A stretch of 64,000 bases of DNA. Origin: a candidate division WOR-3 bacterium. GTDB lineage: Bacteria; Hydrothermota; Hydrothermia; JBDRYB01. A program made the position numbers. Of this stretch, positions 33,001 to 39,000 are shown in pieces; position 1 is the first letter of the stretch, and each line of letters begins with the position of its first letter. Location: positions 74,371 to 138,370 of the forward strand of contig JBDRYB010000004.1 of assembly GCA_039803205.1 (NCBI GenBank), written 5' to 3'.

Positions 33001-36000
33001 GTCTGAGACATAGACATGGCGGTCTGGGGGCATGTCAAATGTTGAGGAGACTATCTCAGCATCAACCAAGCGCTCCATCTCCGTGACCTCCTCTGGCCTC
33101 TCGTCTATGAGTAGGATGATGAGGTGAACATCGGGATAATTTGCTCTTATGGACTGGGCTATCTTCTGGAGGAGGACGGTCTTGCCCGCTCTTGGCGGGG
33201 AAACTATCAAGCCTCTCTGGCCCTTGCCAATGGGGACAAAGAGGTCAAGTATCCTCATGGAGAGGTCAGTGTCCCCGGAATCCGGCCTCTCCAGGATCAT
33301 CCTTTCAGTGGGATAGTAAGGGACCAGCTTCTCAAACTCGGGCCTCTGGGTAGGAAATTCCTCCGGGGAGAAGCCGTGAACGCTCTCAAGCCTTATCAGG
33401 GAAGGGAATCGTTCCTTCTCCTTGGGTGGCCTCGCGTATCCCACTATATAGTCTCCGCGCCTCAGTCCCAGCCTCTTGATTATGTTGGGTGAGACATAGA
33501 CATCTGAGGGGCTCGGAGCATAACCGTGTTCCAAGAACCTTAGGAAGCCGTAGCCGTCCTTGTGTATATCAAGAACCCCCTCTTTGCGGAAGAGCCCTTC
33601 CCTCTCAGCGGTTTGGTTTGTTATGTGCTGTATGAGCTCGGCCTTCTTTAACGAGGAGTAATTGGGTATCCCAAGCTCCTTTGCTATCTCGTATAGCTCG
33701 GCGAGCTTCTTTGTCTTAAGCTCCTCTATGTTCATATTTACCTCCCGTAAAAGGTGCCCTGAAAAAAGCGACCAGGGGGTTCATAGCATCCTCATCCCGT
33801 TTATCCATACCTGGAAGGAAGCCGAGAGCGCCCTCGCGGCCCTTTCGGCTATGTGTATCCTCGGCGTGAAGATCTCAAAGTATTCCATGACGGGGCTTAT
33901 CTCGGTATCTATCTCTATCCTGTAAGATATAACTCTAGCGGCAGGGTCCACTTCTATAGTGCTGTCAGTTGCCGCGAAATTGACCCTGTCGTGTATATCG
34001 TGTTCTATATCATACGCGACCACCCTCGATCTGTGGACATCAGCCTTATCGGCGAGGATGACGGCCGCTGTTATTGCTGTCACGGGTTCCCCGGTCTCCT
34101 CGTGGTGGTTGCCTATGGCAGTGGCAACATCAAGGGCGTCCTGGAACGGCATTCCCATCCCGGTGAGATAAGTCAAGGCGAGGATGGCCCCGGTCTGCTC
34201 GTGCTGGTTGCGGTTTACAGCTGAGCCGATATCGTGTAGGTATCCGGCTATCTCCGCGAGCCCAACATCCCTCTCAGGATACCCCAGATTCCTCATTATC
34301 TTGCCAGCATCCTCCGATACCTTTGACATGTGCCTTTCCCCGTGCTCCGTGTATCCCAGCTTGACAAGGGCCTCCTGTGCCCTTGATATGAGCATGGTTA
34401 TCCTATGGTCCCTTTTAAGGTCTTCTACGGTTATCATAAATAAGACTAGAACCTATAGGGCAAAAAGCCCCTCTTCCTCTACAACGGTTCCCACAACCAC
34501 ATAGTCTGCCCCTGCCCCGAACGCGGCCTCAGCGGCCTCCTTTGTCCTTATGCCACCGCCAACCAGGAGGGGAAGGGTCGTTTCGGCCCTCGCGGCTTTT
34601 ATCATCCCAGGCGGAACCGGCTTAGGCGCACCTGAGCCCGCCTCAAGATATATCGCCTTGAAACCCAGAAGACAAGCGGCCATGATGTGCGCAACGAGTA
34701 TATCAATCTTATCCCTCGGAATGGGCTTTGTGCCGGACATAAATTCTACAGCTGTCTGAGCCCCGGATTCAACCAGTATGTAAGCCGTGGTCACAACGGA
34801 TAACCCCATTCTCTTTATGTGCGGAGCGGCCCGGACATGCTCCCCTATGAGGAACTCGGGGTTCCTACCCGATATCAGAGACAGAAGAAGGATGCCGTCA
34901 GCCTCGGGCGAAAGCTGGGTTGAGTTGCCGGGGAAAATTATGACGGGTTTCGCGAAGTTTCGCTTGAGCTCCCTTACGAACCCTGAGAAATCCTCTGAGA
35001 GCATGAGGCTCGTGCCAGCCAAAACCGCCTTTACCCTCTCGTCAGGATTGATTCTCTCCGCAAGACGCGGTATGTCCTCCCTGGGAAGACGGTCAGGGTC
35101 TAGGAGCACGAAGAATCCCTTGTCCCTATCTTCCGAAAAGAGTCTCCTTAAGGTATCTGAAAAGGGCATTTTTCCCTTTTTTTAGGGCAAAGGCCGCGAG
35201 CCCGGGCGCGCCTGAGAGTATCATGCGGCCGATATATATAGAATCAACGCTTTCAAGGCTCTTTTCGTGGAAAAGGGGCTTCAGCTGGCCGAATAGGTAA
35301 TCCAGATCCCGATCCGTGAAATCAAAATATGCCTCACGGAGGCTGTATGAGAGCTCGTAGGACTTCCTGTCAGCCTCAGACCAGTATCTCTTTGGATACT
35401 CTGCCAGGTTCTTTTCCGAGAGGTCATCCTCCAGGAGCGCCCTCGCGCCCACCTGGCCGGCTATCGTTCCAGAAAGGAGGGCGGGGCCTATTCCACCCCC
35501 GGTTATCGGGTCAGCGAGCCTCGCGGCATCGCCGACGACCATCACCCTATCTCCATAGGGCCTGAGCCTGTGGCCGCCGGTCGGAACAACGGCCAGGATC
35601 CGAGAGAGCCTCTTCCCACGAGGAAAATATCTGGCCAAGAAGGTCTCAAGATAAGGCAGGGGATCAACCCTGGCCCCTCTATCAGCAACACCGACCCCAG
35701 CGTTGGCGAGCCCGTCTCTTTTCGTGAAAAGCCAGGCATAGCCGTGAAGCCCTATATCAGAACCGGAGTATAGTCCGAGCCAATCCCCCGATATATCCCC
35801 ATCGGAAAGGAGAACCTGCGCGGTGTAATGGACATCCGCATGGGAAACATCAACGGCCAACCCGAGGGCCTTTCCCACGGCGGACGCCGGGCCATCAGCG
35901 CCAATCACGAGCCTCGCCCTGACCCGTTCATCCTTCCCCAAATGAACGAAGCTGAGCTCTATGTCATCCTTCGTTCTTCGGGCACCCGTGAACCTCGCTG

Positions 36001-39000
36001 ACACGAGAAACTCAGCGCCAGCAGAAGCGGCCCGGACGGCCAGGTCCCTATCAAATATCCTCCTTTCCAGGATGTAGCCGACATGGCCTACATGAACATG
36101 GAAATAATCCCCTCCGGGGGAATAGACCCTCACATTCCTAACATGATTGGATATCCACCGGGGTTCGGGCTTCCATCCCAGGGCACCGAACCAGAAATCC
36201 GTTATACCCTCCGCGCAAGCTATCTCTCCAGCTACCTGGCGTTGGCGTTCCAGGACAAGAACCCTGAAGCCGCTCCTGGCGAGCTCATATGCGGCGCATG
36301 AGCCGCTAGGCCCAGCACCAACAACCACAGCGTCGTAGCGCTCCATGAGGATTATCAGGGGGAGAGTCCGGCTTTCTCCAGGATCTTAGCCCTTATTTCC
36401 CCAGCGATATCAGGGTGCTCCCTGAGGAAATCCGCGGAGCGCTCCCTTCCCTGACCAAGCTGGGTATCCCCATATGTATACCACGAACCAGCCCTCTTTA
36501 CTATGCCCTTATCAAGAGCAAGGTCAACCAGCTCAGCGAACTGATCTATGCCCTTCCCGTAGATGAGGTCAACCTGAGCGCTCTTGAATGGGGGCGCGAC
36601 CTTGTTCTTCTGAACCTTGATCTTTAGGGTGTGGCCTATTGCCTCCTCGCCCTCCTTGATCTGGGCGGCCCTGCGAACCTCTATCCTCACTGAGGCGTAA
36701 AACTTGAGCGCGTTGCCTCCGGTGGTTACCTCCGGGTTCGCATACGGGCCAACGCCTATTTTGTATCTTATCTGGTTTATGAATATTACCACCGATCCGC
36801 TCTTGCTCACGGCCCCGGCGAGCTTCCTGAGGGCCTTTGACATCAAGCGGGCCTGCGCTCCAACGGTCGTATCCTCCATGGCGCCCTCCAGCTCAGCTCT
36901 TGGAACCAGCGCCGCGACGGAATCAACAACAAAGATGTCGATTCCGCCGGAGCGGATCATGGTCTCAAGTATGTCCAAAGCCTGCTCCCCATCATCCGGT
37001 TGTGAGACCCACAGGTTGTCAACATCAATTCCGAGAGCCTTCGCGTATCCGACATCCAAAGCGTGCTCCGCGTCTATGAACATGGCGGTCCCCCCCTGCT
37101 TCTGAGCCTCGGCTATTGCCAGGAGAGCGACGGTCGTCTTACCGCTCATCTCAGGGCCGTATATCTCAACTATCCTTCCTCTGGGATACCCGCCAACCCC
37201 AAGGGCTATGTCAAGCGCGAGGGAACCCGAAGGTATGACAGGAACCTTCTCAACTGGTTTCCCGCCTATTATCTGCACCGCGCCCTTTCCGTAGTTCTTT
37301 TCTATGATCCTGAGAGCGGCTTCGAGCGCCTTGGCTTTTTCTGAGGGAGGTTCAGTCTGCTTTGGCTTCCCGGAAGCCTTTGTCCCCTCATCCTCGTGTT
37401 TTTCTTGTGTCATGTCTCTTTCTCCTCGATCTTTGGTGCCACCACCCCTTTCTGCTCCTGATACTTCCCCTTCCTGTCCTTGTATGATCGCCTCGTTATC
37501 TCGCTCGCTTCAATGAATATGAGCTGAGCTATACCTTCCCCAGCGTAGACCTTTGCTGGGAGAGGGGTTGTGTTTGAGATCTCTATCGTCAAGTGGCCCT
37601 CCCACTCCGGCTCAAGTGGGGTTATGTTGACCACTATGCCGCACCGGGCGTATGTGCTCTTTCCGAGGCATATTCCGAGGACATCCCTCGGCATTCTGAA
37701 GTATTCAACTGACCTCGCAAGGCAAAAAGAGTTCGGAGGAATGATGCACTCAGGTCCTCTGAAATCAACCAGGCTCCTAGGATCAAAATTCTTGGGGTCA
37801 ACAACCGTATTCCAGACCTCAGTGAATATCTTGAACTCATCCGCTACCCTTATGTCATACCCATAGGAGGAAAGCCCATAGGAGATAACCCCGCGGGTGA
37901 CCAGTTCTGGCACAAAAGGCTCAATCATGCCGTGTTTTAGGGCCATTTCCTCTATCCAGCGGTCGGATTTAAGCCCCATATCTATTCTATAGCGGCTATG
38001 CATTCTATTTCCACCAGCGCGTCCTTGGGCAACCCAGAAACCTCAACGCAGGCCCTTGCCGGATAAGGCTCTGAGAAGTGCCTCGCGTATACCTCGTTCA
38101 CGCGAGGGAAGTCCTTCATGTCCCTGAGGAATATGGTCACCTTGACTATGTCCTTCATCTCAAATCCACCAGCCTCAAGTATGGCCGATATGTTCCTGAG
38201 GGCTAGATCCGCCTGAGCCTCAACCCCCTCAGCGAGGGCGCCTGTTTTCGGATCTATACCGAGTTGGCCTGATACAAAGACGAAATTGCCAACCTCAACA
38301 GCCTGGCTGTAAGGTCCAACGGGCTTCGGCGCGTGCTGGGATTCAATCGCTCTCTTCATGGCTAAATCATAGACCCAAAGCTGGTTCCGGTGCAACCAGA
38401 TTAAGGCCCCGATTATCTAACAACGAGTCGTGCCTGTTGATGAGTATGGAAAGTCCATCCTCGTAGGCCTTTGGAGAGAGGAGAAGAAACCAGCTTTTGC
38501 CAAAAGTGGAGGCGACGAGGCTATCGTAGCTGTATCCATATGACCATTTCAGATGGCTTGAGGGGATGCTGAAGGTATCACCGCTGAACTCCCAGCCACT
38601 TATCTCGCCATTCATGAGCTTTCCGATGGTAATTTCCTCATAGTAGTTAATCTTCAGATTAACCGAGAGAAAAGCGCTATCCCCGAAAACCAGAACTCCC
38701 TATACATCACGAAGAAACCGCCGTTTCCGTAGGCTACAATGGGTGCCTCATAGGACAAACCCCCCATATTCCTCCCAATAGCCTTCTTCCAGAAGTGCCG
38801 TCGCGAGCGGCCCTTATCTGATGAGAACCGTTCACGAATGTGTGCCAGGCAACGAGAAAGTATCCCCCGCCAAAAGCAACAGCGGGTTGATCGTGGGTTC
38901 CTGGCGTGTTGCAAACCGGAAAGATCAGGCTTATCAGAAAGGTAAGCATGATAACCTCCTGTCTGGACAAATTATGAACCGGAGAGAAGGTAAATTGCAA

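Follow-up and report, generated by a model that had tools for sequence, protein, structure and literature searches.

The genome of the candidate division WOR-3 bacterium analysed here encodes homologues of glycerol-1-phosphate (G1P) dehydrogenase (G1PDH), geranylgeranylglyceryl phosphate synthase (GGGPS), DGGGP synthase (DGGGPS) and a geranylgeranyl-reductase-family enzyme (GGR) beside an intact bacterial G3P/fatty-acid route. From these sequences we judge it somewhat better than an even bet, at a probability of roughly 0.55, that the cell would carry G1P-based isoprenoid diether and G3P-based acyl-ester phospholipids side by side. The four family-level matches that the first-pass annotation had proposed lie far beyond chance, and all of its gene coordinates hold. 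Its description of the set as complete stands for the four homologues but not beyond them, since CarS was not found and none of the polyprenyl synthases is unambiguously a GGPP synthase. The reductase and GGGPS genes lie within the window, the 64,000-nucleotide stretch of DNA under study, and the other two lie on contigs C7 and C8:

34453..35169, minus strand: GGGPS homologue, predicted group II, 238 aa (PF01884, NF003198, TIGR01769)
35126..36346, minus strand: geranylgeranyl-reductase-family FAD enzyme (GGR), 406 aa (TIGR02032, PF22578 GGR_cat)
35126..35169, minus strand: 44 nt in which, by the ORF coordinates, the stop region of the reductase gene and the start of the GGGPS gene overlap
C7:43838-44827: G1PDH homologue, a 329-aa Fe-ADH_2 protein
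C8:47545-48360: DGGGP-synthase-like UbiA protein, top family DGGGP synthase NF009521 (170 bits)

The GGGPS ORF matches the PF01884 PcrB profile (121 bits) and exceeds the cut-offs of both NF003198 (249.2 bits against 247) and TIGR01769 (170.3 against 161.55). Its best solved relative is the GGGPS of Flavobacterium johnsoniae (4JEJ, E 3.8e-54), and it aligns well with that of M. thermautotrophicus (4MM1, E 2.9e-43). Identity with a Bacillus-type PcrB was ruled out by comparison with 3VZX, for which the E value is only 6e-7. The motifs YLEAGSG, VVGT and AYILVE are conserved, the hexamer-anchor column holds Phe and the limiter column holds Leu; Leu or Val at the latter resembles Val86 of the archaeal enzyme. 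By these sequence features the protein is a group-II enzyme. The reductase ORF scores 212.6 bits against the TIGR02032 family (cut-off 158.8) and also matches PF22578 GGR_cat. Its top equivalog-type matches are archaeal digeranylgeranylglycerophospholipid reductases, at scores below their cut-offs (172 against 780 and 136 against 580). Among solved structures it is closest to the DGGGPL reductase of T. acidophilum (3OZ2, E 3.6e-46 across residues 1-351); the Cys-containing CxEG, the GYxWxF and the VGDAARLxDPxTGGGI stretches align between the two.

The two genes are sited between recA and rho in a co-directional string, ridA-dcd-recA-GGR-GGGPS-HD-rho, at which no composition anomaly was seen. 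At the same junction in relatives from other families (L020, L021, L022), overlaps of 41-50 nt recur when each ORF is taken from its first start codon, and in 49 of the 109 phylum genomes having both genes these lie on one contig no more than 2.5 kb apart. The overlap probably reflects translational coupling, and the position of the pair within a housekeeping string suggests constitutive expression.

The top family of the G1PDH homologue is the G1P dehydrogenase model NF002022 (225 bits, against 72 for glycerol dehydrogenase), and the stretches GDxxSN, SGSEHxxSHA and LHGEQ are identical to those of M. jannaschii G1PDH (4RGQ, E 7.6e-44) and invariant in 10/10 phylum sequences. The gene shares its first 7 nt with the end of fabH, within a string that in this genus runs idsA-DUF212-M50-fabH-G1PDH and so starts with a short-chain polyprenyl synthase. 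The genome has five UbiA paralogues, by far the most DGGGPS-like of which is the C8 protein; both of its Asp-rich motifs are conserved, and M. jannaschii DGGGPS (6M31, E 6.2e-29) is its sole relative of solved structure. Of the remaining paralogues, one is MqnP-like, one DPPR-synthase-like, one a UbiA+TPR fusion and one a weak protein of 310 aa. The gene 57 nt downstream of DGGGPS, described in the first-pass annotation as a CDP-alcohol-forming cytidylyltransferase, encodes a CTP_transf_1 protein of the bacterial CdsA family. It is the sole cytidylyltransferase of the genome, which is 95.9% complete and in which CarS (PF01864) was not found. G1PDH, DGGGPS and CdsA fall short of their curated equivalog cut-offs (225 against 413, 170 against 296 and 90 against 385, respectively). 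The fabH-G1PDH and DGGGPS-CdsA adjacencies are conserved only within the genus; in other families G1PDH has sugar or polysaccharide genes as neighbours (NTP_transf_3, GH57, SLBB/Poly_export), and in two families an SPFH/Band_7 scaffold gene lies directly upstream of DGGGPS (f1: L029, L031; f10: L034, L035).

Isoprenoids are supplied by the MEP pathway, which was found in the genome; the mevalonate pathway was not. Among its two polyprenyl synthases (C7 and C9) no clear GGPP (C20) synthase was identified. Five residues ahead of the first Asp-rich motif, the C7 enzyme, whose top-scoring model is FPP synthase, carries Phe in place of the Met of its closest solved relative, a cyanobacterial GGPPS. 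At the same position the C9 enzyme carries Gly in place of the Phe of its own closest solved relative, an archaeal GGPPS, and this difference suggests a longer product for C9. The 15 radical-SAM-motif ORFs of at least 350 aa included no recognisable tetraether synthase homologue. Genes for acyl lipids comprise PlsX, two PlsY, Cmk-PlsC, GpsA and FabH, and a FabZ-type dehydratase and an FabF-type synthase are also present.

The presence of the genes, the families to which they belong, their conserved catalytic motifs and synteny, and their joint occurrence across the phylum lead us to infer the following route. The G1PDH, a member of the bacterial clan, would convert DHAP to sn-glycerol-1-phosphate, to which the group-II GGGPS would add an MEP-derived polyprenyl chain, probably C20, in the first ether bond. 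A second chain would come from the DGGGPS-like UbiA prenyltransferase, the single CdsA encoded next to it would provide CTP activation of the ether lipid, and bacterial CDP-alcohol transferases would attach head groups. The GGR-family enzyme would reduce the double bonds, saturating the isoprenoid chains. This route would run alongside the intact PlsX/PlsY/PlsC, GpsA and FAS-II route, and its predicted products, saturated diether lipids, may reach the membrane in meaningful amounts.

Rather than having been acquired recently by this genome, the trait is old and broadly retained across the phylum. In a survey of 201 phylum genomes, some of them kin and hence non-independent, so that co-occurrence overstates the support, G1PDH, GGGPS and DGGGPS are found together in 81, with GGR additionally in 73 of these; the single special case of the first-pass annotation is thus a common one, and the question of naturally mixed membranes becomes testable phylum-wide. 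GGGPS relatives occur in 132 of the 201 genomes and GGR relatives (E<=1e-20) in 123. DGGGPS accompanies GGGPS in 122 of the 132 positive genomes as against 8 of the 69 negative ones. Where both synthases occur, G1PDH is present in 81 of 122 genomes, and elsewhere in 11 of 79; for G1PDH the family model and the protein query recovered the same 92 genomes. The link is nevertheless not obligatory, since both synthases occur without G1PDH in 41 genomes, and G1PDH without either of them in 8. PlsY is retained in 200 of the 201, and the acyl route was therefore never replaced. In a 56-row G1PDH tree the 12 sequences from the phylum all fall in one clade (98% SH-aLRT), shared with G1PDHs of Actinomycetota, Bacillota and Fibrobacterota. 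The tree also contains archaeal-looking G1PDHs on some public MAG contigs with bacterial labels (L079, L115, L125).

It is possible, although we consider it rather unlikely, that the enzymes, though active, yield no more than a minor or specialised prenylglycerol lipid, in the manner of AraM and PcrB in Bacillus, with the bulk membrane remaining bacterial. Such a lipid could have another chain length, be dephosphorylated or otherwise modified, or belong to membrane microdomains. The near-universal PlsY, the failure to find CarS or a clear C20 synthase, and the Band_7 gene upstream of DGGGPS in two families are all consistent with this, and Bacillus offers a precedent (PMC6431249, PMC9179154), the B. 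subtilis homologues being described in the former as able to make only a minor lipid. However, the GGGPS is of group II, unlike that of the PcrB pathway, with an archaeal-like limiter residue; a DGGGPS homologue almost always accompanies it; a dedicated reductase is probably translationally coupled to it; and the housekeeping string suggests that the pair is constitutively expressed. There is a smaller chance that G1PDH serves mainly another purpose, such as G1P-based acyl-ester lipids made by non-stereospecific PlsY and PlsC, or a surface polymer, and is only loosely coupled to the synthases. Its position directly after fabH in this genus, the two PlsY paralogues, the sugar and polysaccharide neighbours elsewhere, the 8 and 41 genomes in which G1PDH and the synthases are separated, and the in vitro acceptance of both glycerol-phosphate enantiomers by PlsY and PlsC (reported in part of PMC13400652) point this way. 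Against it stand the enrichment of G1PDH with both synthases, the restriction of the fabH adjacency to one genus and the opening of that genus' string with idsA.

Archaea are to be expected in hot springs, and the habitat label of this genome is hot-spring metagenome. That the enzymes run backwards or serve salvage, dismantling or re-using archaeal lipids scavenged from the community, is nonetheless improbable: a G1PDH of the cell's own, together with a saturating reductase, suits synthesis more than breakdown; the housekeeping synteny and the retention across the phylum favour a core function; and the neighbourhoods of the ether-lipid loci showed no genes dedicated to uptake or catabolism. 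Salvage has been raised, in a passage of Coleman et al. (2019, PMC6431249), for bacteria with GGGPS and DGGGPS but without G1PDH. We hardly credit contamination from an archaeon during assembly or binning, even though the genome is a 50-contig draft and archaeal-looking G1PDHs do occur on bacterial-labelled contigs. The genes lie among bacterial housekeeping genes (recA/rho; fabH/dnaA; prfA/Band_7/cdsA), which argues against such an origin; contamination is estimated at 0.05%, composition is uniform, and the same loci recur in same-genus genomes at 71-87% identity.

The preferred reading, synthesis of diether beside ester lipids, has several relatives among known systems. The novelty claimed for the full set is not upheld, because the relevant passages of Coleman et al. 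(2019, PMC6431249) already name bacteria with all three genes in one genome, in Firmicutes, Actinobacteria and Fibrobacteres (Bacillus, Halanaerobium, Streptomyces, Chitinispirillum and Chitinivibrio). As there, the G1PDH belongs to a bacterial clan with no recent archaeal transfer, in agreement with our tree, but the phylum is a different one; in the supplementary tables of that paper two WOR-3 genomes appear under GGGPS and DGGGPS and are absent from G1PDH. Added to that work here are the frequency within one phylum, the GGR and the synteny. Ca. Cloacimonetes and other members of the FCB group, as portrayed in passages of Villanueva et al. (2020, PMC7852524), likewise combine a putative ether-lipid pathway of GGGPS, DGGGPS and a geranylgeranyl reductase with a fatty-acid route; they have an MEP pathway and two polyprenyl synthases and, without CarS, are proposed to use CdsA and bacterial head-group enzymes. 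The contrast once drawn with Cloacimonetes as lacking G1PDH falls away at the level of the phylum, in which Coleman et al. (2019, PMC6431249) note orthologues; it holds for the four MAGs described without the gene in PMC7852524, whereas a homologue is present in this genome and in 81 of the 201. The overlap of GGR with GGGPS is a further difference. As a precedent for the preferred reading, E. coli expressing Cloacimonetes GGGPS and DGGGPS is reported in PMC7852524 to make phosphatidylglycerol-archaeol through the CDP-activating and head-group enzymes of the host.

The B. subtilis AraM-PcrB heptaprenylglyceryl phosphate pathway shares a bacterial G1P dehydrogenase, a PcrB-family prenyltransferase and a G1P ether bond, but PcrB is a group Ib enzyme with a C35 chain whereas the limiter here is like that for archaeal C20, and this genome further encodes another prenyltransferase and a reductase. 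The order of steps proposed here is that of the canonical archaeal pathway as outlined in part of PMC9385802 (G1PDH, GGGPS, DGGGPS, CDP activation, head-group transfer and saturation by GGR), from which the genome differs in that CarS, the mevalonate pathway and a tetraether synthase homologue were not found in it and that a full acyl route co-exists. Both lipid routes are combined in one bacterium in the hybrid heterochiral E. coli of Caforio et al. (2018, PMC5889666), which is reported to show that mixed heterochiral membranes are viable; that strain is man-made, whereas a mixed membrane in the bacterium studied here would be natural and of ancient origin.

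The genes for geranylgeranylglyceryl phosphate synthase (GGGPS) and for a reductase of the geranylgeranyl reductase family (GGR) lie side by side in the window, within a tight co-directional string on the minus strand that spans 32467-38395.

Genes of the string in the window
37982-38395, minus strand, RidA-family protein
37410-38003, minus strand, dCTP deaminase
36355-37413, minus strand, RecA
35126-36346, minus strand, GGR-family FAD enzyme, 406 aa (TIGR02032, PF22578)
34453-35169, minus strand, GGGPS of the PcrB family, 238 aa (PF01884, NF003198, TIGR01769)
33781-34437, minus strand, HD-domain protein, 218 aa, between GGGPS and rho
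32467-33735, minus strand, Rho

The GGR and GGGPS reading frames share an overlap of 44 nt, and the base composition around the locus shows nothing unusual. GGGPS scores 121 bits on PF01884 and passes two curated cut-offs, those of TIGR01769 (170.3 bits; cut-off 161.55) and NF003198 (249.2 bits; cut-off 247), while GGR passes that of TIGR02032 (212.6 bits; cut-off 158.8) and has the catalytic domain of its family, PF22578, as well as a conserved Cys and FAD motifs. Given these family scores, the overlap and the normal composition, the GGGPS-GGR pair described in the first-pass annotation is therefore correct. An Rfam search of the window returned 0 matches; the stretch is contained in four DNA runs, all of one study, and in no RNA run among those listed. 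Three further open reading frames in the window, 39026-39559 (minus strand), 30351-31232 (plus) and 31180-31890 (plus), encode 177, 293 and 236 aa and gave no hit to Pfam or NCBIfam at E<=0.001, and a PTS enzyme I gene starts at 39543 (plus).

The HD-domain gene at 33781-34437 was considered as a member of the pathway and rejected, since its distribution is independent of GGGPS. It stands between GGGPS and rho in this genome and also in other families, and is found in 107/201 genomes of the phylum (47-62% identity outside the genus), including families of the sample without GGGPS (f3 6/6, f7 5/5, f15 19/19 and f20 4/4); it was not found in the GGGPS-bearing families f18 (0/14), f21 (0/20) and f24 (0/10). 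A protein-atlas search with the HD protein matched nothing but 'HD domain' clusters.

The nearest solved structures to the GGGPS, from F. johnsoniae (4JEJ, E 3.8e-54) and Methanothermobacter (4MM1, 2.9e-43), are both group-II enzymes, and Bacillus PcrB matches it at 6e-7 only, which places it in group II rather than with group I/PcrB. Passages of a 2022 review describe group II by a Thr replacing Asn in the phosphate-binding loop and by a conserved Tyr/Tyr/Glu, and call the chain-length limiter 'ill-defined' (PMC9385802). Among 12 phylum sequences drawn from four families, the Tyr/Tyr/Glu residues and the Thr in the last phosphate loop are present in 12/12, as are the VVGT, YLEAGSG and xYxLxE motifs, one sequence having the variant YLEGGSG. 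The small limiter column holds Leu or Val in 12/12 (Val86 in the archaeal and Ile90 in the Flavobacterium enzyme). The column of the predicted hexamer anchor, Trp141 in M. thermautotrophicus, is occupied by Phe or Tyr in 12/12, whereas the dimeric Flavobacterium GGGPS has Arg there. The GGR can be aligned along its entire length with the digeranylgeranylglycerophospholipid reductase of Thermoplasma (3OZ2, E 3.6e-46). It falls below the archaeal equivalogs for that reductase (172 against 780 bits for NF041160; 136 against 580 for NF041080), and its substrate is therefore assigned from gene linkage only.

A candidate source of sn-glycerol-1-phosphate (G1P) is encoded on contig C7, in a co-directional string comprising a short-chain polyprenyl synthase, DUF212 (divergent PAP2), an M50-like protein, FabH, a 329-aa Fe-ADH_2 protein and DnaA. 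The best family of the Fe-ADH_2 protein, whose gene overlaps fabH by 7 nt, is G1P dehydrogenase (G1PDH; NF002022, 225 bits), with glycerol dehydrogenase at 72 bits. It matches the G1PDH of M. jannaschii (4RGQ) at E 7.6e-44 and 153.5 bits and that of Pyrobaculum at 2e-36, and PDB chains that are clearly glycerol dehydrogenases match at 1e-13 or worse, the best being 13GO at 54.8 bits; 3CE9, deposited as 'Glycerol dehydrogenase', reaches 128.4 bits (E 3.2e-36). Its GDxxSN, SGSEHxxSHA and LHGEQ stretches, which we take to hold the metal-binding and catalytic residues (Asp, His, His), are identical to those of the M. jannaschii enzyme, and these stretches are invariant in 10/10 phylum sequences, as are D150, H229, H233 and H245. 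The homologue scores under the NCBIfam equivalog cut-off (225 against 413 bits), which none of the 92 homologues in the phylum reaches (best 361 bits) and which is passed by 3/6 of the control genomes giving a match. By these comparisons the C7 protein is closer to G1PDH than to glycerol dehydrogenase, and its predicted product from DHAP is the sn-1 enantiomer.

The candidate for the second prenyl transfer, a 271-aa UbiA protein encoded on contig C8, follows prfA and a Band_7/SPFH gene and has a CTP_transf_1 gene 57 nt downstream. It scores 123 bits on PF01040, and its best family is digeranylgeranylglyceryl phosphate synthase (DGGGPS; NF009521, 169.8 bits), the cut-off of which, 296, it misses. 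The M. jannaschii DGGGPS 6M31 is its sole PDB match (E 6.2e-29), with the NDxxDxxxD and DxxxD motifs aligned, and it is the most DGGGPS-like of five UbiA paralogues in the genome. The other four are an MqnP-like protein, one resembling decaprenyl-phosphate phosphoribosyltransferase, a 767-aa fusion of UbiA with TPR repeats and a weakly matching 310-aa protein. In the fusion, encoded on contig C12 (extracted locus L130:592-2895, plus strand), a central UbiA domain is followed by C-terminal TPR repeats, and the similarity to DGGGPS or ChlG is weak (about 65 bits). With solved homologues at E<1e-28, there is little doubt about the folds of the enzymes. The models for CdsA, G1PDH, DGGGPS and the lipid-specific reductase were all matched below their curated equivalog scores.

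The cytidylyltransferase beside the DGGGPS gene belongs to the bacterial CdsA family (PF01148, 185 bits), of which the genome has no other copy. The archaeal CDP-archaeol synthase CarS (PF01864) had no match in this 95.9%-complete genome, while 6/14 control genomes do match. Of the two CDP-alcohol transferases of the genome under study one is PgsA-like; the other, on contig C33 (L044:944-1612, plus strand), has archaetidylinositol phosphate synthase as its best family (121.8 bits; cut-off 180), scores slightly lower on the bacterial PIP synthase model (103.8 bits; cut-off 170) and overlaps the start of an inositol-3-phosphate synthase gene (L044:1609-2715, plus strand; 545 bits). Inositol phospholipids are a probable product, on an ether or an ester backbone. 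The SPFH/Band_7 scaffold gene (C8, L004:7380-8141, minus strand) lies directly upstream of the DGGGPS-like gene; it precedes that gene in family f1 and again in f10 (relatives L031, L034 and L035), an arrangement that may tie the ether lipid to microdomains of the membrane.

The bacterial route accompanies these genes. The genome, of which the window is C4:74371-138370, measures 2.32 Mb in 50 contigs (95.9% complete, 0.05% contaminated). It encodes PlsX, GpsA (405 bits), FabH, a FabZ-type dehydratase, a FabF-type synthase and two PlsY proteins, of which one exceeds the curated score and the other falls short of it. On contig C2 a 437-aa Cmk-PlsC fusion (L040:733-2046, plus strand) is immediately followed by the gene for IspH of the MEP pathway (L045:1474-2349, plus strand). 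With IspH encoded and no HMG-CoA reductase found in the genome, the MEP pathway is the predicted supplier of isoprenoid units. There are two polyprenyl synthases, on contigs C7 and C9. The C7 enzyme has a two-residue insertion in the first Asp-rich motif and a Phe five residues before it; its best solved relative is a cyanobacterial geranylgeranyl diphosphate (GGPP) synthase, 7MXZ (2e-64), with Met in the place of that Phe. An FPP synthase is close behind (1e-61), and among NCBIfam models the one for FPP synthase ranks first (269 bits; cut-off 275). In the C9 enzyme the motif is uninterrupted and the fifth position before it is Gly, where its best solved relative, the archaeal GGPP synthase 5JFQ, has Phe. 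Under chain-length rules summarised in passages of PMC9385802, this replacement of Phe by Gly suggests that the product is longer. It may serve menaquinone synthesis, for which the genome has MqnC, MqnE-like and MqnP-like genes. A supply of C20 prenyl units is plausible. No tetraether synthase was recognised among 15 open reading frames of at least 350 aa with a CxxxCxxC motif, and the single radical-SAM protein left unassigned resembles peptide maturases.

The genes were followed through 201 genomes spread evenly over the phylum, the genome under study included, with its own proteins as queries. At E<=1e-10, G1PDH was found in 92/201, GGGPS in 132/201 and DGGGPS-like proteins in 130/201, and GGR at E<=1e-20 in 123/201; the G1PDH family model at E<=1e-30 recovered the identical 92 genomes. 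Relatedness makes the genomes non-independent, so the counts are descriptive of the sample only and test nothing.

Combinations of the four genes in the sample
GGGPS and DGGGPS: 122/201
G1PDH, GGGPS and DGGGPS: 81/201
All four genes, GGR included: 73/201
Both synthases without G1PDH: 41/201
G1PDH without either synthase: 8/201
None of the four: 47/201

Presence follows families: G1PDH and GGGPS occur together in f4 (5/5), f6 (11/11), f18 (14/14) and f24 (10/10); f2 has GGGPS, DGGGPS and GGR in 8/8 genomes, some of them 100% complete, but G1PDH in 0/8; and each of the four genes is found in 0/19 genomes of f15. There are two other genomes of the same genus, one with a G1PDH at 78% identity and the second, 86% complete, with no G1PDH match. 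PlsY is found in 200/201 genomes, the exception being 70% complete, and all 152 high-quality genomes keep it; hence the archaeal-type set only ever adds to the bacterial route and never replaces it.

In 49/109 genomes holding both, GGR and GGGPS are no more than 2.5 kb apart on the same contig, and the order GGR-GGGPS-HD-rho recurs in f12 and GGR-like-GGGPS-rho in f9. The order fabH-G1PDH-dnaA recurs in a same-genus genome and is absent from ten examined loci of other families, where the neighbours of G1PDH are NTP_transf_3, GH57, SLBB/Poly_export, RsmB or EF-Tu genes, and DGGGPS was found adjoining CdsA only in this genome and one of its genus. Neither fabH-G1PDH nor DGGGPS-CdsA is accepted as a conserved operon, as both adjacencies are limited to the genus.

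A quick maximum-likelihood tree of G1PDH (LG+G4, SH-aLRT support) was built from 56 rows: 12 from the phylum, 13 bacterial-labelled, 30 archaeal and, as outgroup, this genome's own Fe-ADH paralogue. From the 91 recovered homologue rows 36 were omitted (2 duplicates and 34 archaeal rows, the latter for speed), and one more locus gave no open reading frame. All 12 phylum sequences fall in a 24-row clade with 98% support, within which the tree leaves their monophyly undecided. The clade also holds four rows from Actinomycetota, two from Bacillota, two from Fibrobacterota, one from Gammaproteobacteria, a bacterial-labelled row without a named phylum and two archaeon-labelled rows. It adjoins Archaeoglobi and one Aenigmatarchaeota row, and the very long outgroup branch makes the root unsafe. 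The tree fits the 'bacterial clan' that passages of Coleman et al. (2019; PMC6431249) describe for G1PDH, and it speaks against G1PDH having come recently from an archaeon.

The first-pass annotation read these genes as a complete archaeal-type set beside the bacterial route. The homologues and their coexistence with that route hold; the word 'complete' does not, as CarS was not found and the product lengths of the polyprenyl synthases are ambiguous. We favour, with a probability of roughly 0.55, the reading that isoprenoid diether phospholipids on G1P are synthesised beside ordinary acyl lipids, in which case CdsA and the bacterial head-group enzymes would complete the ether branch. The main rival reading, rather unlikely to our mind, has the pathway yield minor or specialised lipids; in its favour are the universally retained PlsY, the failure to find CarS, the ambiguous C20 supply and the SPFH neighbour. 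G1PDH might also, or instead, feed G1P into acyl lipids, given that passages of PMC13400652 report that PlsY and PlsC take both glycerol-phosphate enantiomers in vitro and that the gene follows fabH in this genus; we think this improbable. Salvage of archaeal lipids seems very improbable, and archaeal contamination, the least credible explanation, was rejected given the synteny, composition and conservation within the genus.

A broader proposal may be tentatively advanced, with the odds against it: that across this largely thermophilic phylum an archaeal-type route with its own G1PDH has been kept vertically and in working order, so that about four in ten of the sampled genomes would build natural heterochiral membranes of saturated G1P isoprenoid diethers and acyl esters of sn-glycerol-3-phosphate. 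Both branches would share one CdsA, GGGPS would assemble as a hexamer in the archaeal manner, and sister families without G1PDH (f2, 8/8) would amount to a natural experiment on an alternative source of G1P.

In the study of early evolution the 'lipid divide' that separates archaea from bacteria has long been a problem, and passages of two papers state that a natural mixed heterochiral membrane has not yet been shown in any organism (PMC7852524; PMC13400652). Coleman et al. (2019) report all three archaeal genes in six bacterial phyla, and in single genomes of Bacillus, Halanaerobium, Streptomyces, Chitinispirillum and Chitinivibrio; in the tables of their supplement, two WOR-3 genomes appear in those for GGGPS and DGGGPS and none in that for G1PDH (PMC6431249). 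According to passages of Villanueva et al. (2020), four Cloacimonetes MAGs encode GGGPS, DGGGPS, GGR and the MEP pathway without CarS and G1PDH, and Cloacimonetes GGGPS and DGGGPS yielded phosphatidylglycerol-archaeol in E. coli (PMC7852524). Those MAGs are without a known G1P source, and no cultured representative is mentioned in these passages, whereas 73/201 genomes here have G1PDH with the full set. Since our literature search combining WOR-3 with lipid terms found the WOR-3 term only in Coleman et al. (2019), whose G1PDH table is without WOR-3, the G1PDH-bearing set is not in print for this phylum in the literature searched, if the phylum is WOR-3; the kind of finding is already known. 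A term search of the 2025 description of the first WOR-3 isolate found no occurrence of lipid, ether, isopren-, fatty acid or geranylgeranyl (PMC12285271). What is added is a phylum-wide gene pattern in which three states occur within one phylum (full set, 73/201; set without G1PDH, 41/201; none of the four, 47/201). It offers natural contrasts between genomes that have G1PDH and those that lack it, and the lineage may be culturable: if the phylum name is right, a pure culture of the lineage exists and simple lipidomics could decide on real mixed membranes.

Eight genomes (G076, G096, G106, G141, G155, G171, G179 and G193) carry G1PDH homologues without GGGPS or DGGGPS, a hint that G1P may be used in another way as well in the phylum. 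Five genomes of family f8, genus g11 (G108, G112, G119, G152 and G162), have, in the GGGPS slot beside the HD gene, a divergent gene of PcrB type (31-33% identity, E about 1e-28) and gave no DGGGPS, GGR or G1PDH match to our queries; it may be a repurposed or decaying remnant. Three contigs of public MAGs labelled Limnocylindrales (L079), Sulfotelmatobacter (L115) and Bacteroidaceae (L125) encode G1PDHs clustering closely with sequences from Bathyarchaeia or Methanobacteriaceae, and are possibly archaeal contigs misbinned in those MAGs.
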